64,000 bases of DNA from Minisyncoccota bacterium (GTDB lineage: Bacteria; Patescibacteriota; Minisyncoccia; Phycocordibacterales; WO2-35-19). Where the stretch lies: positions 14,568-78,567 of the forward strand of contig DATDXE010000015.1 in NCBI GenBank assembly GCA_036517255.1. The letters run 5' to 3'. The notes under the pieces were generated by a model, which saw only the letters and a list, made by a program, of their open reading frames with translations, was not told where the DNA came from and ran no database searches. Below are positions 8,800-44,824 of the stretch, in pieces; positions within the stretch are counted from its first letter, which is position 1, and each line of letters begins with the position of its first letter. A program made the position numbers and the translations under genes.

Positions 8800-8833
8800 T
8801 AGAGCCATATTTCATTAAGTAAATGCCTGGGCT

Positions 8834-8862
8834 TGACTTTTATACATAAAGTATGCTATAAT
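8834..8862 (+). promoter_or_regulatory. Near-consensus sigma70 promoter (TTGACT-17-TGcTATAAT, extended -10)
   Basis: -35 TTGACT 8834-8839; TG 8854-8855; TATAAT 8857-8862. The SD AAGGAGG 8867-8873 follows. Confidence 0.5.
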
Positions 8863-8880
8863 AACCAAGGAGGTAGCCCA

Positions 8881-9201
8881 ATGATATTGCGTGTTGGAAG
8901 TGTAGTGAAGTTCGTCTACAATCCAAGGAACGGCGAGCGGATCACCGACGTCCACTTGGACGGGGAAAATGTGGAGCTGTCATACGGCACCCAGCTTCAT
9001 TTTCACAATGGTTTGGATGTGAGACAGCCTGGGGTAGGTAGCAGTAAGATGTGGGTGCCAATCCCCGAAAACCTGAGGAAGGTGACCTATACGAAAAAAG
9101 ATGACCAAGTCGGCTTCATACCGATCGAGGAACCGGGGACATTCTTTCCGGTTCTGAAAATCGCCGGCGGACTAGCCACGATCATCTCCCTTCCTGAATA
9201 A
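8881..9201 (+). CDS. GC-rich small hypothetical protein (106 aa), foreign codon usage
   Basis: Perfect SD 8 nt upstream of ATG 8881. GC-rich third codon positions contrast with AT-rich neighbours. No recognisable family. Confidence 0.5.
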   Translation: MILRVGSVVKFVYNPRNGERITDVHLDGENVELSYGTQLHFHNGLDVRQPGVGSSKMWVPIPENLRKVTYTKKDDQVGFIPIEEPGTFFPVLKIAGGLATIISLPE

Positions 9202-9270: not shown

Positions 9271-11184
9271 ATGTGTGGCATTGCTGGATATATTGGAAAT
9301 GGAGGCAATAAAGACAAACTAAAGGCAATGGCCAAAGCGTTAGAGAGGCGTGGGCCAGATGATGAGGGGTTTTATGAGACAAGTAGTGAAGGAAAAAAGG
9401 TAGGCTTCGCTTTCAGACGACTTTCTATAATAGATGTAGCAGGAGGTCACCAGCCTATTTCAAACGAAAATGGTGATGTGTGGGTGATGTTAAATGGTGA
9501 AATTTATGACTTCAAGCCTCTGCGAGAAAAACTATTAAATTTGGGGCACCAATTTAAAACTCAATCAGACACAGAAGTTATCGTTCACGCTTACGAAGAG
9601 TGGAGTGAAGAATGTTTTAAAAAATTGGACGGGATGTTCGCCATCGCTATTTGGGACTCGAAAAAGCAAAAGTTGACTCTAGCTCGCGATAGGCTTGGTA
9701 AAAAACCTCTTTATTACACTATTCAAAAAAATACCGGGGAAAGTACAATGTGGTTTGCTTCTGAACTAAAAGCCCTGATTGCGGTGGGTGCTTTCAAAAA
9801 AGAAATTGATCCTGAGTCTTTGAATTTATATTTCAGGACTGAAGCCGTGCCGACCCCTAAAACCATCTTTAAAGAAGTTTATAAATTAGAGCCAGCCACC
9901 TCTCTTTCTTTTGTTGATGGGAAAATAACGAAAAATAAATTCTGGAACTACCCGACAGAAACCATAGAAAACTTAGGCGCAGAAAATGTAGTAGAAGAAT
10001 TAGGAAAAAGGATAGATGAAAGTGTAAGAAAAAGATTGGTTTCTGACGTACCTCTAGGGCTTTTCCTTTCAGGAGGGCTTGATTCAGCGATAGTGGCAGA
10101 AAGCGCAAGTAGACAACACCCAGGGCTAGAAGCTTTCACCCTAGGATTTGAAGACAAAACTTATGACGAAACAGAGAATGCCAAAATAATAGCAAAAACT
10201 TTGGGTCTCAAACATCATATTGAGATTCTTTCAGAAGAAAAAGCTCTGGCCGTTTTAGAAGACGCAATAAATTTACTTGATGAGCCACTCGCTGACCCAT
10301 CTATTTTACCCCAACTTCTACTTTCAAAATTTACTAGAGAAAATGTGACTGTCGCTCTCTCTGGAGATGGAGGCGACGAACTACTCCTCGGTTACCAACA
10401 CATCCCCGCTCATATATGGAGAGAGAGATTGGATTTTCTGCCAGGAGCTTTTTGGAATATGAGTAAGAAAATTTTAAACACAGTGCCATCGGGAAGTGGC
10501 TATTTTAGTTTGGGGTTCAAAACTCAAAGACTTGCTCGCGGGCTTGATTTGGAAAACCGTCTTGAAAGAGATGCGACATGGCGAGGCGCATTTGATCAAG
10601 AAACTTTACAAAAGTTACTAAAGATGACCTTTGGGCTACCGCACCAAGGGTCATCTTTAGTAACTAACGAAGCTGAAAATATTTTAAAAGCTTACGCATC
10701 TGAAACTTCAAATCCTGAGAGTTGGTCAGCATGGAGCTGGGCATATTTAAGAACATTCCTCATGGACGACGTATTGGTGAAAGTAGATAGAGCAACCATG
10801 TGGCACTCTCTCGAAGCCCGCGCCCCACTCTTGGATACGAATGTTGTATCTTTTCTTTTGAGTTTACCCGATGAATACAAATTAGGAAAATACAGAGACA
10901 AAAGATTATTTAAAGAAATACTAAAGAAAAGATTGCCTGAATCTATTTTGAACGCCTCCAAACATGGCTTCGGTGTCCCTATTTCTAAATGGCTAAATGG
11001 GGTTCTAAAAAATAAATTGCTAGAAGTTTCTGACCCAGAATTTCTAAAAAAACAAAATTTATTTGATTCTTCAGCAATAGCAAAATTAATAAAAGAGCAT
11101 GCCGCAGGTGGTAAAGATCGCCGCAAAGAACTTTGGGCCTTTTTATGTTTCCAAATGTGGTACATTAGATGGCACATAAAATAA
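9271..11184 (+). CDS. asnB: Asparagine synthase (glutamine-hydrolysing) family amidotransferase
   Basis: MCGIAGYIG N-terminal Cys nucleophile; SGGLDSA PP-loop; 637 aa. Confidence 0.75.
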   Translation: MCGIAGYIGNGGNKDKLKAMAKALERRGPDDEGFYETSSEGKKVGFAFRRLSIIDVAGGHQPISNENGDVWVMLNGEIYDFKPLREKLLNLGHQFKTQSDTEVIVHAYEEWSEECFKKLDGMFAIAIWDSKKQKLTLARDRLGKKPLYYTIQKNTGESTMWFASELKALIAVGAFKKEIDPESLNLYFRTEAVPTPKTIFKEVYKLEPATSLSFVDGKITKNKFWNYPTETIENLGAENVVEELGKRIDESVRKRLVSDVPLGLFLSGGLDSAIVAESASRQHPGLEAFTLGFEDKTYDETENAKIIAKTLGLKHHIEILSEEKALAVLEDAINLLDEPLADPSILPQLLLSKFTRENVTVALSGDGGDELLLGYQHIPAHIWRERLDFLPGAFWNMSKKILNTVPSGSGYFSLGFKTQRLARGLDLENRLERDATWRGAFDQETLQKLLKMTFGLPHQGSSLVTNEAENILKAYASETSNPESWSAWSWAYLRTFLMDDVLVKVDRATMWHSLEARAPLLDTNVVSFLLSLPDEYKLGKYRDKRLFKEILKKRLPESILNASKHGFGVPISKWLNGVLKNKLLEVSDPEFLKKQNLFDSSAIAKLIKEHAAGGKDRRKELWAFLCFQMWYIRWHIK

Positions 11185-14369: not shown

Positions 14370-16047
14370 TCATATAACGATCGCGAGCTTCATATATTTT
14401 TTTACACGAATCAAAATACTTTCGATAAATACTATTCGGATCGACAGGAGGAGCATCGATTTCGAGGTAGTGGCCGGAGAAATTATTGATAGTTTCTATT
14501 TTTTGATTCTGATCAAAAATTGGCGAAGTATAAAGGCGTTTTTGATATTTACCAGTTTGCATTATTTCCCTGCCACCATTGTCATTGTAAACGACCACTT
14601 TTTTTATATCAGAATTATTTTTAATAAATTCCGCTGCATCACGCACAAGAGCTGGAGCATATCCGTTTATTTTACCGAATGTATATTCTTCAATAAATAC
14701 AGCGTTATAAAATAGCCCTAGAATCAAGAAGGCAACCCAAATTTCTTTTTGCAAATTCTTCTTCCATAAATACAACCCCGTGAACACTGCCCCCAAAATC
14801 CAAGATAGGGCAATAAAAATAAAAGAAACATAGAAAGTAAGAGGCCCAGAGCCACCGCTAAATGGATACAGGAAATTCCAGTTGAAAGAAAGTATCCTGT
14901 CTATCCACTCTGCCTTAGGGTGCAATGCTGGGACATATTGGTCTAGAAATTGAGTAAGGAAAACGAAGAAAACACAAAGCAGAAAAATTATTTTGCTAGC
15001 GTGCCTTCGTAGGAGCGACGGCGACGAAGAGAGAAAATTTTCAGCAGAAAATACTCCAGCAATAATACAAAGTGGCACAATCATGAATTGGAAGTAACGA
15101 TCCAGAGCTCCAGCTGAAAAATCGAAAAGAATGAGATAGAAAATTAATCCAAGTGCTAAGAAGAGATGAAATAATTTTAAGTCTTTACTATACGGCGATC
15201 CCACTTCGCTAAAGCTTCGCGGGACAAGCAAGGAAATAAGAAAAGATAAAACTAAAAATGGAGACAGATAAAATAGAGCTTTCACAAACTGGATACCGCT
15301 TTGGAAGAAATTCCTGCTGCCGAAGCCTTTCATAAAAGTTTCAGAGTAAGCTATTATTTTTTGCAAATCGAAACCTGGGAAAAGTTTTTGGGCTACAAAC
15401 ATAAGTAAGGCAACTAAAACAGCAAAAGAGATTAACCCACTTAAAGCATATAAAATGTTTTTACGATTAAGTTTTTCTTTATGATTCCAAACAAAATCGA
15501 GAATTAAGGCTCCAATAACAAGAGCAAAACTAAACTTAACCAACATTCCTAAGATGAGAGCGGCCACGAGCAAGCCACCAAATAAAAACTTTTTATTGCC
15601 AGTAGAAGAACTAAAATAATCATAAAACAAAATAGAAAGAAGAAAGAAGAAAGGTAGCACTGCCCCATCAGTATCTATCATAAGCGAAGCTAGAACTGAG
15701 AAAAATGAAAGAGCAAAAAATAGAGAAGACCAAAGAGCCGCCCCTACCCCGTACCGACGACGCACAATAATATAAATTAAAGTCAGGTTAATAAGAGAGA
15801 ATATAAGTGGCGTAACTCTAAAATTCTCATCTCCAAAAAAGTTCCGAGTAGCCCTATAGATGGCTTCACTAAGTGGAGGGTGTGGAATAACCCCCGGTTC
15901 AGTCAGTTCCGGATTTACAATTATCGGCCACTTGTATTCATCTTGGTGATATGGAGCGTGGATAGCAGGTAACCTTAAAGCAAAAAACAAAATAATGATA
16001 CCGAAGAACAACAGATATTCCTTTTTATTAGAAACAAAAGCCTGCAT
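14323..16047 (-). CDS. GT-C family membrane glycosyltransferase (ArnT / PMT_2-like, GT39/83)
   Basis: 574 aa and heavily polytopic. First-loop DE motif (HQDEYKW) is typical of ArnT/PMT enzymes. Confidence 0.5.
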   Translation of the reverse strand: MQAFVSNKKEYLLFFGIIILFFALRLPAIHAPYHQDEYKWPIIVNPELTEPGVIPHPPLSEAIYRATRNFFGDENFRVTPLIFSLINLTLIYIIVRRRYGVGAALWSSLFFALSFFSVLASLMIDTDGAVLPFFFLLSILFYDYFSSSTGNKKFLFGGLLVAALILGMLVKFSFALVIGALILDFVWNHKEKLNRKNILYALSGLISFAVLVALLMFVAQKLFPGFDLQKIIAYSETFMKGFGSRNFFQSGIQFVKALFYLSPFLVLSFLISLLVPRSFSEVGSPYSKDLKLFHLFLALGLIFYLILFDFSAGALDRYFQFMIVPLCIIAGVFSAENFLSSSPSLLRRHASKIIFLLCVFFVFLTQFLDQYVPALHPKAEWIDRILSFNWNFLYPFSGGSGPLTFYVSFIFIALSWILGAVFTGLYLWKKNLQKEIWVAFLILGLFYNAVFIEEYTFGKINGYAPALVRDAAEFIKNNSDIKKVVVYNDNGGREIMQTGKYQKRLYTSPIFDQNQKIETINNFSGHYLEIDAPPVDPNSIYRKYFDSCKKIYEARDRYMNAFIYDCQNAPDIKL

Positions 16048-16188: not shown

Positions 16189-16593
16189 ATGGAAAATAAA
16201 GACCCGTATATGAACCGGCTAAAGTTGATAGGACCCCGAAAGGTAAAGAGGGGGGACAGGCTCATCGTCCAGACGAGGGGGGGAGGTAGTTTCAGTGGTG
16301 AACGGATCATCACGCTCCTCAAGAACCAAGAGCGGCGAGTCTACCCTCGCATCGGAACAGTGATCAGCTTTGCTGGTCCTGTAGAAGTGATCGGCTCGCG
16401 CGGCAGTGCTGCCGGCGGGGCAAGATCGCCTGGCGGCGTCATCGATGAAAGAATCGCGCGTATCACTAGCCGACAGGTACCTGACAACCCTAAGGAGTCA
16501 GCCCCTTGCCTGGAATTTCTGGGAAGTGGGCTGACACTGTTTCTCCACTTCATCCATCCGGGACAAGTAGCCCGCGTGTTGAAGGCTTCCTAG
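16189..16593 (+). CDS. GC-rich small hypothetical protein (134 aa), Gly/Arg/Ser-rich
   Basis: The ORF spans exactly the GC-rich block. It has an SD, GC-rich wobble positions, and a hairpin terminator downstream. Confidence 0.45.
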   Translation: MENKDPYMNRLKLIGPRKVKRGDRLIVQTRGGGSFSGERIITLLKNQERRVYPRIGTVISFAGPVEVIGSRGSAAGGARSPGGVIDERIARITSRQVPDNPKESAPCLEFLGSGLTLFLHFIHPGQVARVLKAS

Positions 16594-28923: not shown

Positions 28924-29139
28924 TTAACTTTTGTCCTCTGAATAATTTTCTCCGATATTTCGGGCCACATAGAGCGCACTAAAATAGCGAGGCCTAAGAG
29001 AGACACGACAATGTGACGCATATTTCCAGGTATACCAAGGAATGGAATAACAAAGATAAGCAGGCCAGTTATAGGGTAAAACCTTTTCATTGCACACAGT
29101 ATAATTTCTAAATGACAAAAGGTAAAGCTTTTAAAGTTG

Positions 29140-30839: not shown

Positions 30840-31188
30840 GCTCGCCGGTTGGCGAAATAATATTCTTTGTTTTGTTCCGTCCTACTATTTAGTTTTCTGC
30901 TGTCTTTCCAGCTGCCACCCGCCTGTAACGCTATGCTTAGCATTGCGGGCAGGTACCATTTTAAGTTGTGATCAAACTATTGCGCACTCGATCGAGTTGC
31001 ACAATATCGACTGTCATTCCTTTCCTCCGACATAAGTCAGAGAAGAGGAAATTTTCACCTTGAAATATTCCACGAGCAGCTTCCGCTACCCGTGCCTTGT
31101 TACGACTTACTCCCTGTCATTGAGCTTACCTTAGTCCCACTTGCGTGAGCCTTTGGGTACTCCCAACTCCCTTGAGTTGACGGGCGGA

Positions 31189-32075
31189 TTGTGATTTTCT
31201 CACATCCCCTGAAGTATTTAATATAAATACTTCACCATACTGCTTCCCATCATTTCACAGTTTTGGACGTAGCGAGCAGATTTCCTGCACTACGCGAGCC
31301 CGATAGTTTTCAAATTCATTTTTGCTTTTAGCTTCCTGATTCTCTCTAAACCATCTTTAGTAAGATGATCTTTTGATTGAACTAGTTTGGCTACTTTACA
31401 AAATAATTCAAAATTTTTCTGTTTAGAAAAACTCTGAAGAGGATATTGTTTGAAAAATGGGATCAATATTTTAAGAACATCTGAATATGAACTTATGCTG
31501 TATCTATAGCATTGAGCATGGTTAACTCTCTGCTCTTTTTGAAAATACACAGCTCCACATTTCAGAGTATTCTTAACTTTTTCCAGAAGGAATCTATCTT
31601 TCTCCTGCATTTTTATATGAAAATGCAATTGAACATTAAACCCCATTCTGTAGAGAGAAGATTTTCTTACATTTACGTAAAAACATCCTTCTCCATCCGT
31701 TAATCCTACAATATACTCATTTGAAACTATCGGTTTTGTCCTTTCCACACATATTTAATATTATTGTTTTAATTATAACATTAAGTTGACGCATGGTACT
31801 ACGACTCAGCTGACTCCCAGCACTAATTTAGTGCTGGGTCTCCCAGGGTCATTTATAACTCCTTTCCAAACATCCCAACGAAGATTTTTGTTCGTGCTTC
31901 CTTCAGACTCACCGCAGAAGTCGCACATCTCTTTTTTGATCGGGCTACCTTTCGCTACTAGGATCCTTCGGTCCTCACATTACTGTAGGGGACCTACCCG
32001 TTCGCTAAATTGCTTTCGCAACTATCAGACTTTAACTGATTGGATTTATAAACTGCCTGGCGCCTTTAATTTTGA
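31189..32075 (-). mobile_element. Intervening sequence / intron-like insertion in 16S near E. coli position about 1390-1400, carrying a homing endonuclease ORF
   Basis: The conserved TGTACACACCGCCCGT block is split: GTACAAG sits at 32076-32082 and GACGGGCGG at 31180-31188. Confidence 0.65.
31290..31748 (-). CDS. LAGLIDADG homing endonuclease (single-motif)
   Basis: IVGLTDGEGCF dodecapeptide motif; 152 aa; same orientation as the rRNA. Confidence 0.7.
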   Translation of the reverse strand: MERTKPIVSNEYIVGLTDGEGCFYVNVRKSSLYRMGFNVQLHFHIKMQEKDRFLLEKVKNTLKCGAVYFQKEQRVNHAQCYRYSISSYSDVLKILIPFFKQYPLQSFSKQKNFELFCKVAKLVQSKDHLTKDGLERIRKLKAKMNLKTIGLA

Positions 32076-32298
32076 GTACAAGACTTGAGAACGTATTCAC
32101 CGCGGTATAGCTGACCCGCGATTACTAGCGATTCCAACTTCATGGGGTCGAGTTTCAGCCCCCAATCCGAACTGGCGCCACTTTTCTTAGGATTAGCTCA
32201 GTCTTGCGACGTCGCGACCCGTTGTAGTGGCGATTGTATTATGCGTGTAGCCCAAGGCGTCAGAGGGACATGCTGACCTGGCGTCATCCTCGCTTCCT

Positions 32299-32441
32299 CC
32301 CAGCACGAAGTGAACGAAGTTCACTTCAAGTAAAAAGTTCATAAAGTTATAAAGTTTTTAAAGTAAGGAAAATTCTTACTTTATAACTTTACAAACTTTC
32401 AACTCCTTAACTCGAAGTGCGTTCACGCACTTTGTGCTGGG
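32299..32441 (-). other. 16S expansion segment of about 120 nt (V7 region), AT-rich nested palindrome
   Basis: The interval between the GGAGGAAG...GACGTC block and CATGCATCACCTG is about twice the canonical length. Outer stem CCCAGCACGAAGTG/CACTTTGTGCTGGG; inner AAGTTATAAAGT/ACTTTATAACTT. Confidence 0.5.
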
Positions 32442-33792
32442 CAGTCTCGGCTGACACTTGTAACAGCCAACGAGGGTTGCGTTCGTTACCCCACTTAAGG
32501 GAACAACTCAAATCACGAACTGACGACGGCCATGCATCACCTGTTCAAGTGTTCTTGCGAACGTTTACATTTCTGTATTCTTCACTTGAATTTCTAGCCT
32601 TGGTAAGGTTTTTCGTTTGTTGTCGAATTGAACCGCATAATCCACCGCTTGTGCAAGTCCCCGTCTATTCCTTTGAGTTTTAAGCTTGCGCTCGTACTAC
32701 CCAGGCGCCTCTCTTAACGCGTTAGCTTCGCCTCCCAGAGGGTCGATACTCCGGAAAGCTAGAGAGGAACGTTTAGGGCGTAGACTACGCGGGTATCTAA
32801 TCCGCTTCGCTACCTACGCTTTCGTGTTTCAGTGTCAGGAGTGCGCCAGTGAATTGCCTTCGCTTTTGGTGTTCCCCATGATATCAACGGATTTCACCCC
32901 TACTCCATGAGTTCCATTCACCCCTCGCATCCTCAAGCTCTGCCGTTTCTTTCGCATTTCTCCAATTAGGTCGGAGTCTTTAACGAAAGACTAACAGTGC
33001 CACCTACACACCCTTTACGCCCAGTGATTCCGGATAACGCTTGGGGCCTCTGTATTACCGCTCCTGCTGGCACAGAGTTTGGAGCCCCTTATTCATGAGG
33101 TACTATCGTCCCGAAGGATTTCTCCCTCATAAAAGACCTTTACGTCCCGAAGGACTTCATCAGTCACGCGGCGTCGCTCGATCAGGCTTTCGCCCATTGT
33201 CGAATATTCTCGGCTGCAGCCACCCGTAGGTGTATGGACCGTTTCTCAGTTCCATCGGTGGGGGTCAGCCTCTCAGCTCCCCTAAGCGTCATAGCCTTGG
33301 TAAGCCATTACCTTACCAACTAGCTGATACTCCGCAGGCTCTTCCTTAAGCGTCTTGCGACTTTACTCTTACGAGACTATTTGGGATTACCTCCTCTTTC
33401 GAGAAGCTATACCAAACTTAAGGGAAGATACCTACGTGTTACTACCTCGTCTGCCGGTACCTCGGTCTTGCGACCTCGGCCCCTTGACTTGCATGCCTTA
33501 TCCACGCCGCCAGCGTTCATCCTGAGCTAGGATCAAACTCTAAATATAATTAGACGGAACAAAACGAAGAATACTATATCCTGTCATTTCATATTTTCTA
33601 ATTTTTCAGTTTGATCTTCTAACTCAAAAAATCATTGTTTGTGTGTACTTATTTTATTACTCAAAGAAATATAGACTAGGACTTACATCTCAATCTTATA
33701 TATTTCTTATTTCAAGTATGAAAATGTCAAAGACCAATCAAAACTCCCCACGAAGGAGAGCAGGGTAAAGTATAAGGATAAAAATAGGCCTG

Positions 33793-41151: not shown

Positions 41152-41493
41152 CTATTTTTTAGTTTCAGTGGTTGATTTAGCGGCTTGAGCGGCGGAAATT
41201 TCAGCTTCCTTCTTTTTAGCTTCGAGTTCTTTCTGCATTTTACCTCCATGCCTTACGAATTTGCGAGTAGGAGAAAATTCACCCAAACGATGACCTACCA
41301 TATCTTCAGAAATCAAAACTTCTACGTGAACCTTGCCATTGTGAACACCGAAAATGAAACCTACCATTTCAGGAGCGATGACGCAGGCTCGCGACCATGT
41401 TTTAATAACCCCAGTTTCTACAGGTTTCTTGCCCTCGATCTTTTTCAAGACTCGAGGATCAACATATGGGCCTTTTTTCAGTGATCGCGACAT
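41152..41493 (-). CDS. rpsS: 30S ribosomal protein S19 (with K/A/E-rich C-terminal extension)
   Basis: [11 protein letters not shown]... Confidence 0.85.
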
Positions 41494-41588
41494 ACAAAAA
41501 ACGCGTGAGCGTTGTTTGGGATATTAACATAAGGTTTTGACACACGCAAACCTTAAATAGGGCAAGATGACTCTTTTTAGATTAGGGC

Positions 41589-41616
41589 TTGACATTTAGT
41601 TAAATATGAGTAGGGT
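41589..41616 (+). promoter_or_regulatory. Conserved promoter-like element TTGACA-16-TAGGGT (copy 1 of 3)
   Basis: TTGACA 41589-41594; TAGGGT 41611-41616. The shared block TATGAGTAGGGT also occurs in copy 2. Confidence 0.4.
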
Positions 41617-41672
41617 GAGCACCAGAGCCCGTCTCAATAGAAGAGGCGGGACGATCGAAGGAGAGAAAGAAA

Positions 41673-42254
41673 ATGAAAAATACGCGCTGGGCCATTCTGG
41701 CCCTGATTGCGCTGATTTCGCTCACGGTTTCGCCCGTGAGCGCCCTGCCGGTACTTAGTGTGGAGGTCGGCTTCAGCAACCTGCCGCTCGAAGGAGTTGT
41801 GGCGCCGGTGTCACCGGGAGCAACGGGCATCGATTTTTCGAGCCTGATGCAGTCGGCGCCGGGATGCGCCGGGGCCAACATGGCCCTATGCGGCATGGGA
41901 TCGGTCGTTTTCTCAAGCACCGACTTCGACAGTGGCGTCGCGTTCAGCATGATTCTGGGGCCAAGCCTCACGTATACCACAAGCGGACCGTGGAGCGCGG
42001 CCGGCGGACCGGGAGGAAGCTTCAGCATTAGCACGCTCGGGACATACACCGCTGCAGGGTATGACCCCACGGCCGGAAGCATGAACCTGACGTTTCAACC
42101 CCCGCCAGTAGCAGGCAACTATTCGTTTTCGGCAAGCGGCGCCACATCGCCGGTGCCCGAACCGAGTTCAATCATCTTGATGAGCGGCGGCCTCATCGGC
42201 TTCTACTTCATCAACCGGCGTCACCAGTTCCGGCAACACCAGCGGAAAACCTAG
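41673..42254 (+). CDS. Secreted PEP-CTERM domain protein 1 (GC-rich)
   Basis: Sec signal MKNTRWAILALIALISLTVSPVSA. C-terminus PVPEPSSIILMSGGLIGFYFINRRHQ has the PEP motif, a TM helix and an Arg cluster. A GGAG SD is present. Confidence 0.7.
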   Translation: MKNTRWAILALIALISLTVSPVSALPVLSVEVGFSNLPLEGVVAPVSPGATGIDFSSLMQSAPGCAGANMALCGMGSVVFSSTDFDSGVAFSMILGPSLTYTTSGPWSAAGGPGGSFSISTLGTYTAAGYDPTAGSMNLTFQPPPVAGNYSFSASGATSPVPEPSSIILMSGGLIGFYFINRRHQFRQHQRKT

Positions 42255-42283
42255 CGACTTGCGGCAACGCCGGTCGCACAACC

Positions 42284-42318
42284 ATCGGCCCCGAGCAATC
42301 GGGGCTGATTTCTTTTAT
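42284..42318 (+). terminator. Hairpin (GNRA loop GCAA) plus T-tract; near-identical to the one after the second PEP-CTERM gene
   Basis: GCCCCGA-GCAA-TCGGGGC, then TGATTTCTTTT. Confidence 0.5.
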
Positions 42319-42341
42319 AAAAATAAAACTGTTTATAACGT

Positions 42342-42369
42342 TTGACATTGAAGCAAATGTGAGTAGGGT
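42342..42369 (+). promoter_or_regulatory. Conserved promoter-like element TTGACA-16-TAGGGT (copy 2)
   Basis: TTGACATT...TGTGAGTAGGGTAAG. Confidence 0.4.
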
Positions 42370-42432
42370 AAGTTTCAGAGTCGGGCCAATTTATAGGATC
42401 CGACCAAGAACCAAGCAAGGAGAGAGTTAACG

Positions 42433-43077
42433 ATGAAGAAAAATGTTTGTTGGGCCATTCTGGCCCTGATTGCGCTGATCACGCTCACGGTTTCGCCCGT
42501 GAGCGCAACAACGGTGATCGATTTCACCAGCCCAATTTACTCCGGAGCCACCGGAAACACGACCTTCGCCGTCGTCGATCAGGGGATTTTCAACAACCTG
42601 ACGGCAAGCGGCGGGGTCCTGAACTGGACACCCGGGGGCGGACTCGGAATCAACGGGCCAACTTCGCTCGACGATCCGAGCGAAATCGGACTCCTGGAAG
42701 TGCTGGGAGATGGATTGGTTCCACCGCTCATGACCCTTTATGACATCTACCTAGGGGACATCTACACCAGCGAATTTCTGACCGGCACCGAGCAGGCGCA
42801 GTATCGCATCAACGGTGGGGCGTGGATTACCGTGAGCGCAGTCACTCCCACTTCCGGGTCGGGCCTGCTCACGATTTCAGTGAACTTGGACAACGTCTCC
42901 CAGATCGACTTCCGGGCGACGAAGTTGGGTTCCGACTTCAGCGTCCGCGGCTACAGCGCCGAAGTCGTGCCCGAGATGAGTACCATCTTCCTTTCGGGAA
43001 CTGGTCTACTCGGCCTGGGATTGTGGGCTCAGATCAACATCCGGCGCAGGCGGCAACGGGAACAGCAGAAAACCTGA
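42433..43077 (+). CDS. Secreted PEP-CTERM domain protein 2 (GC-rich)
   Basis: Signal MKKNVCWAILALIALITLTVSPVSA is nearly identical to that of protein 1. C-terminus VVPEMSTIFLSGTGLLGLGLWAQINIRRRRQ. Confidence 0.7.
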   Translation: MKKNVCWAILALIALITLTVSPVSATTVIDFTSPIYSGATGNTTFAVVDQGIFNNLTASGGVLNWTPGGGLGINGPTSLDDPSEIGLLEVLGDGLVPPLMTLYDIYLGDIYTSEFLTGTEQAQYRINGGAWITVSAVTPTSGSGLLTISVNLDNVSQIDFRATKLGSDFSVRGYSAEVVPEMSTIFLSGTGLLGLGLWAQINIRRRRQREQQKT

Positions 43078-43107
43078 ACCTTTGCGGCTTGCAAATGCCG
43101 CACAACC

Positions 43108-43141
43108 ATCAGCCCCGAGAAATCGGGGCTGATTTATTTTT
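43108..43141 (+). terminator. Hairpin (GAAA tetraloop) plus T-tract
   Basis: GCCCCGA-GAAA-TCGGGGC, then TGATTTATTTT. Confidence 0.5.
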
Positions 43142-43164
43142 AATCCGCCAGCTGGCGGAACCCC

Positions 43165-43193
43165 TTTACATTTTAAAAAGTTTATGCTAGGGT
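43165..43193 (+). promoter_or_regulatory. Conserved promoter-like element TTTACA-17-TAGGGT (copy 3)
   Basis: TTTACATT...TTATGCTAGGGTCACC. Confidence 0.35.
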
Positions 43194-43239
43194 CACCTCG
43201 GCCATGAAGTTTGTGGTACTTTGAGAATGAGGTAAAGAA

Positions 43240-43893
43240 ATGCTACATCGGAGGCTGTGCCTAGTTGTTTTGATTTTCACTTTACTGGCTGCAGCGGCGA
43301 CTGCAGGACCAATGGTCTATTTCGAAAAGGAAGAGTGGAAGGAAGCGCTAGGGAACAACGCCTCCTATGTGAGCGATAGCCTCAAGGGCGGCCCAAGCGA
43401 GATCTTCGATCTCGAGAGCGGCTGGGAGCTCTCCGGCTATAAGGAGAACGGTTTTTACGACCAGGTGTCGATCAAGAAAGACAACGAGAGTAGCTACTCG
43501 TTGCTCTCCGGAGCTCCTATGTACGCCTGGGGAGCGAATTTCGACACGGCGCCCATGGATCAGGGCAACGGCTTCTGCTTTTCCTTCCAGTACGTCGGAG
43601 GAAGCAGTGATTCGGCCGAATGCTTCAACCGCGATCCCTTTATCCAAGGGTTCGTCGGATTCGTGTTCAGTACCGGAGTCGAGAGCATCGTGCTCCAGAC
43701 TAGTACTGGACCTCACTCCCCGCTCCAGGAAACGTACCTGGTATGGGATATGATCGCAGTGACGAGCATGGGAGGTGGAGGAGGAGGCCCCGGCCCACCA
43801 TCTCCAAGCGAGGTACCGGAACCAGGAAGTCTCGGCCTAATCGGCCTGGGACTGGTTTATTTCGGAATCATGACCCGTCGGAGACAGGAATAA
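43240..43893 (+). CDS. Secreted PEP-CTERM domain protein 3 (GC-rich; Gly/Pro linker)
   Basis: Signal peptide; GGGGGGPGPPSPSE linker; C-terminus VPEPGSLGLIGLGLVYFGIMTRRRQE. Confidence 0.7.
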   Translation: MLHRRLCLVVLIFTLLAAAATAGPMVYFEKEEWKEALGNNASYVSDSLKGGPSEIFDLESGWELSGYKENGFYDQVSIKKDNESSYSLLSGAPMYAWGANFDTAPMDQGNGFCFSFQYVGGSSDSAECFNRDPFIQGFVGFVFSTGVESIVLQTSTGPHSPLQETYLVWDMIAVTSMGGGGGGPGPPSPSEVPEPGSLGLIGLGLVYFGIMTRRRQE

Positions 43894-43918
43894 CGAGTAC
43901 CTTGCGGCAACGCCGCGA

Positions 43919-43955
43919 CGGCCCCCCACCAGTTTGGTAGGGGGCCGTTATATAT
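43919..43955. terminator. Strong GC hairpin between convergent PEP-CTERM gene 3 and rplB
   Basis: CGGCCCCCCACC-AGTTT-GGTAGGGGGCCG. A/T-rich on the plus side. Confidence 0.5.
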
Positions 43956-43969
43956 TATGATTTTATTAT

Positions 43970-44824
43970 TTAGCCTTTCCTCTGCTTACCTACTTTCCTA
44001 CGAGACACAATAAATTTATTTGAATATTTTTTGACTCGGCGTGATTTTTGGCCTTTGCCAGTCGGTTTGCCCCACATAGAAACAGCTCGCCTGCGGCCCC
44101 TACCTTGACGGCCTTCACCTCCTCCGTGTGGGTGATCCACAGGGTTCATAGCGGTACCACGAACAGTAGGTCTAATGCCCTTCCACCTACTCCTACCTGC
44201 TTTACCATAATTTTCCAACCTTTTTTCTTCATTAGAAACTTCACCGACTGACGCCCAAGCATTTTCACTTACTTTTCGCACTTCAGTCGAAGGCATTTTC
44301 AAATCCACCATCCCCGCATCCTTAGCTAAAACTTGTATAAACACTCCAGCAGAACGACCCAGCTTCGCTCCACTCTTCGGTTTAATTTCTGCATTGTAAA
44401 CAAAAGTACCAATAGGGATATTCTTGAGTTGTAAACGATTTCCTTGTTTCAGTGGAGCGCCTTCTGCAGTTACAAGCTCTTCCCCCACCTTCACTCCTCG
44501 AGGCAATAATACATATCGCTTTTCACCATCTTTATACACGGCGAGGCCGATAAGACCGGTGCGATTTGGATCGTATTCGACAGAAGCTATCTTATAAGGC
44601 ACTCCGATTTTGTCATACTTAAAATCAATCTCTCGCCAAAGCCTTTTTACTCCTGCTCCTTTATGTCTAGTCGTGACTCGACCAAAAGCATTGCGACCAA
44701 CCTTTCTGTGATGACCAGAAGTAAGCGATTTTTCTGGATTGCTTGTAGTGGTAACACCCTTATAGGCGACAACGCTCATGTGCCTGCGTGATTTCGATGT
44801 TGGTTTGTAAGTTTTTATTGCCAT
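43970..44824 (-). CDS. rplB: 50S ribosomal protein L2
   Basis: TRHKGAGVKR...NPVDHPHGGGEG. Confidence 0.85.
   Translation of the reverse strand: MAIKTYKPTSKSRRHMSVVAYKGVTTTSNPEKSLTSGHHRKVGRNAFGRVTTRHKGAGVKRLWREIDFKYDKIGVPYKIASVEYDPNRTGLIGLAVYKDGEKRYVLLPRGVKVGEELVTAEGAPLKQGNRLQLKNIPIGTFVYNAEIKPKSGAKLGRSAGVFIQVLAKDAGMVDLKMPSTEVRKVSENAWASVGEVSNEEKRLENYGKAGRSRWKGIRPTVRGTAMNPVDHPHGGGEGRQGRGRRRAVSMWGKPTGKGQKSRRVKKYSNKFIVSRRKVGKQRKG

Follow-up and report, generated by a model that had tools for sequence, protein, structure and literature searches.

PEP-CTERM proteins are typically encoded by single-gene operons with long upstream regions (>200 nt) that share an upstream cis-element (Haft et al., 2006; PMC1569441). 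In Proteobacteria with PrsK/PrsR/PrsT, the PEP-CTERM box consists of an enhancer site and a sigma-54 -24/-12 promoter (PMC1569441; for pepA of Aquincola, PMC9850573). Motif 1 of this box is a 17-nt enhancer site that ends in TTTACA and lies 32-92 nt upstream of a 17-nt motif 2 (PMC1569441). All the bacteria in which PEP-CTERM proteins were reported had an outer membrane, and Actinobacteria were without such proteins (Haft et al., 2006; PMC1569441). Here we describe three consecutive PEP-CTERM genes, the second with a degenerate tail, in a Minisyncoccota bacterium of the candidate phyla radiation (CPR). They lie in a 64,000-nt stretch of DNA (positions 14,568 to 78,567 of contig DATDXE010000015.1, assembly GCA_036517255.1), which we call the window, and each is preceded by the motif TTGACA/TTTACA-16/17-TAGGGT. 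The three genes are probably self-contained single-gene cassettes on a horizontally acquired island of ~2.4 kb, with sigma-70 promoters and with a modular likeness to each other that arose by recombination or gene conversion. We found no report of PEP-CTERM proteins in Patescibacteria/CPR in the literature searched.

The cassettes resemble the described operons in that they encode small secreted PEP-CTERM proteins, are monocistronic and are each followed by a predicted stem-loop terminator. The paralogues also have a common upstream DNA motif, and their upstream regions, at 179, 178 and 162 nt, fall slightly under the published length. The motif is a variant of the known PEP-CTERM single-gene operon with a shared upstream motif, and no novel kind of regulatory element. 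Unlike the proteobacterial PEP-CTERM box, it is sigma-70-like and does not contain GG-N10-GC. Unlike known PEP-CTERM systems, it is carried by a CPR bacterium, outside the reported diderm range.

All three proteins are ~200 residues long and combine an N-terminal signal peptide, hydrophobic and ending in VSA or ATA, with a C-terminal tail made up of a PEP or PEP-like motif, a hydrophobic helix and an Arg cluster. Both protein 1 and protein 3 score above the cutoffs of TIGR02595 (26.5 and 24.1 bits; cutoff 16) and PF07589 (24.1 and 24.7 bits; cutoff 20.7). Protein 2 carries VPEM, not VPEP, and gave no hidden Markov model (HMM) match above cutoff; its tail aligns with that of the protein-1 family at 93% probability (E = 2.6e-7). 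Word-indexed protein searches with the three proteins returned only the proteins themselves. An exhaustive HMMER search recovered ~100 distant relatives of protein 1, the best of them 52% identical and from a sample whose name, ANAN16, hints at the Rifle aquifer study, and this family consists of PEP-CTERM proteins of 180-196 residues with two invariant cysteines. Orphan status applies, provisionally, only to proteins 2 and 3. Neither a metagenome scan that started from the shared signal peptide nor one that started from the protein-1 family yielded a confirmed relative. An AlphaFold model of protein 1, built on the family alignment, has a predicted local distance difference test score (pLDDT) of 87.6 and places a beta-rich domain between two terminal helices, the first spanning residues 3-16; no PDB structure matched this model significantly in a Foldseek search (best E = 0.04). 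Contigs of 55-56% GC, and one of 43% GC, carry distant homologues of protein 1. One of them is itself a single-gene unit, with its own TTGCCA-17-TATAAT promoter, AGGAGG and terminator.

A first-pass annotation of the window had placed the motif ahead of each of the three open reading frames (ORFs), and our re-reading of the coordinates agrees with it base for base (Table 1). By itself, TAGGGT is not enriched in the window (18 found, 23.6 expected). The composite ACATT-N10-22-TAGGGT occurs three times in the 64 kb, at the cassettes each time, where 0.33 occurrences are expected; a count of three was reached in one of 100 shuffles. Perfect TTGACA-N16-18-TAnnnT sites number six in the whole window, including two at the cassettes. 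Promoters 1 and 2 share a 39-nt block of 77% identity (BLASTN). These two cassettes have the same -35 octamer, TTGACATT, and the same 10-nt -10 block, TGAGTAGGGT, whereas 5 of the 14 positions in between differ. Fixed hexamers with variable intervening positions are the pattern expected of a working promoter under selection.

Each of the three sites has a -35 near TTGACA, a spacer of 17 +/- 1 nt and a TAnnnT -10, as sigma-70 promoters do; the GGG centre departs from TATAAT. The first T, the A and the final T of TAnnnT are the positions that sigma-70 region 2 reads most strictly. The host 16S rRNA promoter (TTGACA-16-TATACT, 33796, minus strand) has the same consensus -35 as the cassettes. The first-pass annotation described the other promoters of the window as TATAAT; this is largely right, with host -10 boxes that vary among TATAAT, TATACT and TAATAT. 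Strohl in 1992, and later maps of transcription start sites, reportedly described Streptomyces and Mycobacterium sigma-70 promoters with TAGRRT/TANNNT -10 elements. The cassettes resemble such high-GC promoters in their TTGAC(R) -35 and G-rich -10 middle, and TAGGGT fits TAGRRT. They differ in a spacer of 16-17 nt, not ~18 nt, and the donor need not be an actinobacterium. The cassette motif is probably a sigma-70-class promoter in a high-GC form. With TAnnnT kept in TAGGGT, a consensus -35 and 16-17 nt between the two hexamers, it needs no alternative sigma factor. If transcription starts ~7 nt past the -10, the leaders extend 40-57 nt to the ATG. A perfect 14-nt palindrome, CCGCCAGCTGGCGG, occupies positions 43145-43158, 6 nt 5' of the promoter-3 -35; cassettes 1 and 2 lack it. 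This palindrome might serve as an operator or form a further hairpin behind terminator 2.

The 3' ends of the cassettes are also patterned. Genes 1 and 2 are followed by near-identical hairpins with GNRA loops, as had been noted before, within a 36-nt element, GCACAACCATC(G/A)GCCCCGAG(C/A)AATCGGGGCTGATTT, at 42276-42311 and 43100-43135. No further copy of this element within three mismatches was found in the window (0 expected). The G/A difference replaces a G-U pair with an A-U pair and preserves the stem, and the folding energies of the two 3' untranslated regions are -36.3 kcal/mol (z = -6.4) and -32.9 kcal/mol (z = -6.1). The TTGCGGC..GCCG block that the first-pass annotation saw after the stop codons does recur at all three, with TTGCGGC beginning 4, 4 and 8 nt downstream and forming a mini-hairpin each time; a 15-mer, CTTGCGGCAACGCCG, is identical 3' of genes 1 and 3. 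With a GC-rich 11-bp stem, a tetraloop and a U-run, the 3' ends of cassettes 1 and 2 resemble canonical Rho-independent terminators, from which the cassette terminators differ in being preceded by a conserved mini-hairpin right after the stop codon. The hairpin between the convergent gene 3 and rplB is longer and of other sequence; the terminator scan did not call it, and its T-run is interrupted. An Rfam search of the island returned nothing credible.

The similarity between cassettes 1 and 2 is confined to a few segments. By BLASTN, they match only in the promoter, a 56-nt signal-peptide block, the last codons (Q-R/Q-K-T-stop) and a 42-nt 3' block of 93% identity. The 56-nt block encodes WAILALIALI(S/T)LTVSPVSA and is identical at 54 of 56 positions, with one synonymous and one non-synonymous change. 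Across the ~450 nt between the end blocks, no DNA, protein or profile similarity was detected (BLASTN, BLASTP, hhalign). Cassette 3 has in common with the others only the promoter hexamers, the post-stop hairpin and a generic PEP-CTERM tail. The idea that whole cassettes had recently been duplicated in tandem does not hold up: only the end modules match, and the mature domains are unrelated even when compared with a profile. Relatives of protein 1 have another signal peptide (MKK..ALxAxSASAAP) and another basic tail, which argues that the frame common to proteins 1 and 2 was grafted by recombination or gene conversion. Judged from their sequences, cassettes 1 and 2 are mosaics produced by such exchange, and not simple duplicates.

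This arrangement invites comparison with the vsp/vlp-type gene families of Mycoplasma, in which a conserved 5' region and signal peptide precede a divergent mature part. Like those loci, the island contains tandem paralogues in the same orientation with near-identical promoter and signal-peptide DNA, its unrelated or highly divergent mature domains imply recombination between frames, and its carrier is a small-genome, host-dependent organism. Unlike them, it has no homopolymer in the spacer and no invertase, so that no phase-variation device is seen; there are just three genes, and anchoring would fall to a C-terminal PEP-CTERM helix instead of a lipobox. The signal-peptide block itself contains two hairpins, a 6-bp GGGCCA-uuc-UGGCCC and a perfect 9-bp CGCUCACGG/CCGUGAGCG (z = -3.6 and -4.6). 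The block may be conserved as DNA because it acts as a nucleic-acid element, or because gene conversion took place recently.

The cassettes stand out from their surroundings in composition. The island is 56% GC (55-61% in its coding parts) in a window that is otherwise 39-41% GC, and the step is sharp at both edges. GC content at third codon positions (GC3) is 0.73, 0.73 and 0.64 for genes 1-3 and ranges from 0.24 to 0.48 in 52 host genes. The island is antisense to rplB and rpsS and lies between L2 and S19, inside the cluster L3-L4-L23-L2 / S19-L22-S3-L16-L29-S17-L14. Contigs from three different assemblers, namely the source of the window, JGI 3300002502 and Logan SRR2090153, span the whole island, and a Candidatus Paceibacterota metagenome-assembled genome (MAG) at NCBI encodes the full set of three proteins (HEY4516128-30, locus tags VJH67_). 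In JGI 3300025317 and ENA ERZ4903072, each contig has a single junction and breaks off within gene 3, around 43376-43402; these breaks coincide with allelic diversity in this gene (a 10-substitution allele). Junctions of island and host DNA are present in at least four separate assemblies. The arrangement of island and host DNA is real and is no assembly artefact. All three ORFs are intact in every assembly, and allelic variants carry substitutions only (1 of 193 and 10 of 217 residues), with zero frameshifts or stops; the island is stably present in the population.

In a BLASTN search the island matched nothing among plasmids and phages. Viral contigs, when scanned for exact patterns of the promoter, of the 3' element and of the signal-peptide block, had no match either. 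Among GTDB species representatives, the nearest L2 to that of the host is 73% identical and belongs to a Zambryskiibacteriota genome. Elsewhere in the window, two further small plus-strand ORFs (8833-9201 and 16189-16593; GC3 0.57 and 0.61) have no family match and may be other foreign fragments.

Translation signals on the island differ from those of the host. The island leaders combine a stem-loop with a Shine-Dalgarno (SD)-like site, and ~10 of 52 host genes have any upstream GGAG/GAGG. The host 16S gene (31060-33548, minus strand) contains an intron, which carries a LAGLIDADG ORF (31290-31748). The 3' exon of the gene matches the small-subunit rRNA model only to position 1520 and ends in ...GCUGCUCGUG-GAAUAUUUC, with no CCUCC anti-SD. 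Bacteria normally carry GAUCACCUCCUU where this 16S reads GAAUAUUUC; its 3' end has GGAAUAUUUC instead of GGAUCACCUCCUU. The low count of host genes with an SD is consistent with a 16S that has no anti-SD. In 5 of the 52 host genes, a TATAAT-like box lies exactly 6 nt 5' of the start codon (for example at 29112(+), 37950(-), 60696(-) and 2148(-)), which suggests that these host mRNAs may be leaderless. On the island, the whole series from promoter and leader through SD and ORF to terminator has the look of a single imported package. This fits one half of a proposal in the first-pass annotation, that the motif is an imported regulatory block, since all its parts lie on a compositionally foreign island and the SD has no partner in the host 16S.

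We can outline how such a unit might work. Each would read, in order, as a sigma-70 promoter, a leader with a GGAG-type ribosome-binding site, a signal peptide-PEP-CTERM ORF, a post-stop hairpin and a Rho-independent terminator. The housekeeping RNA polymerase holoenzyme would start ~7 nt past each TAGGGT, and the leader stem-loops could stabilise the mRNAs. The hairpin terminators would stop transcription and in this way insulate the next cassette and shield the convergent rplB from antisense read-through. The proteins would be exported by Sec and then held by, or processed at, the C-terminal helix, giving surface display. Frames with unrelated mature domains could exchange by recombination or gene conversion between paralogues.

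Several observations weigh against this account. The third terminator has no clean U-tract, and the SD sequences of the island cannot pair with the tail of the host 16S. The GGG in the centre of the -10 hampers melting, and promoters of this kind may be poor substrates for an AT-rich CPR polymerase. No match to an exosortase model was found among the window proteins scanned, which come from 64 kb of the genome and included five multi-transmembrane proteins. By analogy with the outer-membrane-only range of known systems, the proteins may be unprocessed or non-functional here. Some of these points, together with a composition that has not been ameliorated and the lack of detectable relatives for two of the three proteins, favour an alternative in which the signals are inert donor relics: the island would be recent silent cargo, its SD sequences useless against the host 16S, and its motifs would reflect donor ancestry. 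We consider this unlikely. The ORFs have stayed intact in every assembly with substitutions alone separating the variants, the hexamers are kept while the spacer varies, and the -35 equals the host's own consensus.

The other half of the first-pass proposal, that an alternative sigma factor or a family-specific regulator recognises the motif, fared less well than the imported block, as a TAnnnT -10 with a consensus -35 does not need one. Such a factor would read TGAGTAGGGT and not just TAnnnT. This would account for the identity of the whole 10-nt -10 block in cassettes 1 and 2 and for the absence of TAGGGT from every other promoter-like site of the window, and a dedicated regulatory system is known for PEP-CTERM genes elsewhere (PMC1569441). 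However, the motif already has everything that sigma-70 requires, and common descent explains the extended identity of cassettes 1 and 2, with cassette 3 sharing only the hexamers and the ATG. No sigma or regulator gene adjoins the island, and the host genome is small. We regard dedicated recognition as quite improbable.

The hairpin-bearing ends, namely the signal-peptide block and the 3' untranslated region with two hairpins apiece, could instead be sites of cassette exchange by recombination, of the integron attC or IS200/IS605-PATE type. The near-identity of the signal-peptide block (96%, a single synonymous difference), its two GC-rich hairpins and the 93% identity of the 3' block around unrelated sequence are the kind of evidence that would favour this. 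Against it, no integrase, TnpA or other recombinase gene lies nearby, and a reading of the 3' elements showed no RYYYAAC/GTTRRRY cores. Integron cassettes are promoterless, whereas every unit here comes with a promoter, and the 3' element is a textbook terminator present in two copies only. We judge this explanation very unlikely. Integron gene cassettes as such were considered and rejected, because the ORFs have their own promoters, the 3' elements have no core sites and there is no integrase-like ORF nearby.

It is still less probable that the motif is a proteobacterial PEP-CTERM box, with TTTACA/TTGACA as the 3' end of a PrsR enhancer and a sigma-54 promoter downstream. In the published description the genes are single-gene operons, and motif 1 does end in TTTACA (PMC1569441). 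TTTACA/TTGACA is present in the cassettes, a likeness to the last six positions of motif 1, and there is no motif 2 from which its distance could be measured. None of the three upstream regions contains a sigma-54 GG-N10-GC, and the best match to TGGCACG-N4-TTGCW reaches 7-8 of 12 positions. The ~78 nt from TTGACA to the ATG leave scant room for a spacer of at least 32 nt, a 17-nt motif 2 and a leader of at least 23 nt. Among the window proteins scanned, which come from 64 kb of the genome, there is no prsK, prsR, prsT or rpoN. Finally, an assembly chimera that joined the DNA of a GC-rich organism to a CPR contig might be suspected from the sharp GC steps and from the two assemblies that break inside gene 3, and can be set aside as extremely improbable given the spanning contigs from three assemblers, the MAG that encodes all three proteins, the junctions in the two partial contigs and the match of the breaks to allelic diversity.

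Table 1. Features of the PEP-CTERM island and its flanks, in window coordinates.
Feature	Position	Strand	Basis
Whole GC-rich island, ~2.4 kb, boundaries approximate	41560..43950	+	GC profile, GC3
Putative promoter 1: TTGACA 41589-41594, 16-nt spacer, TAGGGT 41611-41616	41589..41616	+	sequence reading, motif counts
Leader hairpin, cassette 1: CCCGUCUC-loop-GAGGCGGG	41628..41650	+	z = -2.9; 0/200 shuffles fold as well
SD-like AAGGAGAG, 7 nt 5' of gene 1 ATG	41658..41665	+	sequence
Gene 1, 193 aa: signal peptide, beta-rich domain, PEP-CTERM tail	41673..42254	+	HMMs, homologues, structure model
56-nt signal-peptide block, 96% identical to 42451-42506; two GC-rich hairpins	41688..41743	+	BLASTN, folding
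Post-stop hairpin 1, contains TTGCGGCAACGCCG	42254..42277	+	sequence, folding
Predicted intrinsic terminator 1: 11-bp stem, GCAA loop, T-run	42284..42319	+	terminator scan, folding
Putative promoter 2: TTGACA 42342-42347, 16-nt spacer, TAGGGT 42364-42369	42342..42369	+	sequence reading, motif counts
SD-like AAGGAGAG, 8 nt 5' of gene 2 ATG	42417..42424	+	sequence
Gene 2, 214 aa: gene-1 signal peptide, unrelated mature domain, degenerate VPEM PEP-CTERM tail	42433..43077	+	profile alignment
Post-stop hairpin 2: GCGGC-8 nt-GCCGC	43083..43102	+	folding
Predicted intrinsic terminator 2: 11-bp stem, GAAA loop, T-run	43108..43143	+	terminator scan, folding
Putative promoter 3: TTTACA 43165-43170, 17-nt spacer, TAGGGT 43188-43193; TGn abuts -10	43165..43193	+	sequence reading, motif counts
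SD-like GAGGT, 6 nt 5' of gene 3 ATG	43229..43233	+	sequence
Gene 3, 217 aa: different signal peptide, unrelated mature domain, PEP-CTERM tail	43240..43893	+	HMMs
Post-stop hairpin 3: GCGGC-AAC-GCCGC	43904..43916	+	sequence, folding
Terminator-like hairpin 3, other sequence, longer; between convergent gene 3 and rplB	43917..43949	+	folding z = -3.7
Host rpsS (S19), left neighbour	41152..41493	-	family match
Host rpsS promoter TTGCGT-17-TGtTAATAT + leader hairpin + U-run, divergent from promoter 1	41500..41549	-	sequence, folding
Host rplB (L2), right neighbour	43970..44824	-	family match

The site that the island occupies is unusual in the relatives of this bacterium as well. The gap between L2 and S19 is 2-197 nt in ~60 non-CPR genomes recovered with L2; among Paceibacterota-type relatives, it measures 144-4879 nt in the 14 closest with both genes on the stretch retrieved, and exceeds 560 nt in 12 of these. 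In these relatives the gap carries, in either orientation, genes for OMP decarboxylase (pyrF), SAICAR synthetase (purC), a diacylglycerol kinase (dgkA-like), large Ig/PKD-domain proteins and unknown ORFs; it contains no PEP-CTERM genes. The rplB-rpsS junction (window 41494-43969; loci L007-L025) has the appearance of a break in the S10-spc cluster, or of a landing site there, that is specific to this clade. No report of an interrupted rplB-rpsS junction was found in the literature searched.

In the window and in seven relatives (L008, L012, L015, L017, L021, L022 and L024), rpsS, which lies downstream of the break, is preceded by a promoter of its own and then by a small hairpin with a U-run. 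The layout is a TTGACt-like -35 and a TA(G/A)TAT -10, then immediately a 4-8-bp hairpin of varying sequence with a U-run, then the AUG. Folding the leaders singly showed the hairpins; RNAalifold gave no consensus structure for them, as the hairpins are not alignable in sequence, and there was no Rfam match. This leader is a candidate for an undescribed attenuator or 5' stabiliser.

Other observations concern the PEP-CTERM genes and their setting. A gene 3 allele (P0002, from SRR3989344) has 10 substitutions at residues 127-204, all within the C-terminal 90 residues and with no indels; no contig carrying P0002 was located. The differences amount to local microdiversity in a putative surface protein. 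A homologue of protein 1 with 50% identity (L088, 1188-1736) sits in a tightly packed locus of small ORFs at 56% GC with a weak RuvC match, and this locus may be a phage or other mobile element bearing a PEP-CTERM gene. The window also contains a large glycosyltransferase/exopolysaccharide (EPS)-like gene cluster (~100-29000); an EPS locus, like an outer membrane, is described as a trait of bacteria with the PEP-CTERM/exosortase system. An asparagine-synthase (AsnB)-like protein (9271-11184) has as its best NCBIfam match the XrtA/PEP-CTERM amidotransferase model TIGR03108, at 503 bits, below the cutoff of 817 bits.

As sigma-70 and terminator signals, the motifs of these cassettes are ordinary. 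Their context is noteworthy: a raw foreign island inside the most conserved bacterial gene cluster, in a tiny-genome lineage. The island brings SD-type leaders into a host without an anti-SD, and PEP-CTERM proteins into a lineage outside the described diderm range. One could envision, as a tentative and still rather doubtful scenario, that a CPR episymbiont recently took up ready PEP-CTERM cassettes from a diderm neighbour rich in GC, perhaps from its own host, keeps them intact at a clade-specific landing pad between rplB and rpsS, and exchanges mature domains inside an unchanging frame of promoter, signal peptide, anchor and terminator. The C-terminal helix would then serve as a simple membrane anchor or as the substrate of a sortase-like enzyme, in a cell that is not expected to have an exosortase system. 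If the cassettes are expressed, they would provide a handle on how CPR bacteria acquire and display surface proteins, with bearing on host attachment, on how foreign expression signals fare in SD-less translation, and on why the rplB-rpsS junction is permissive in this clade.

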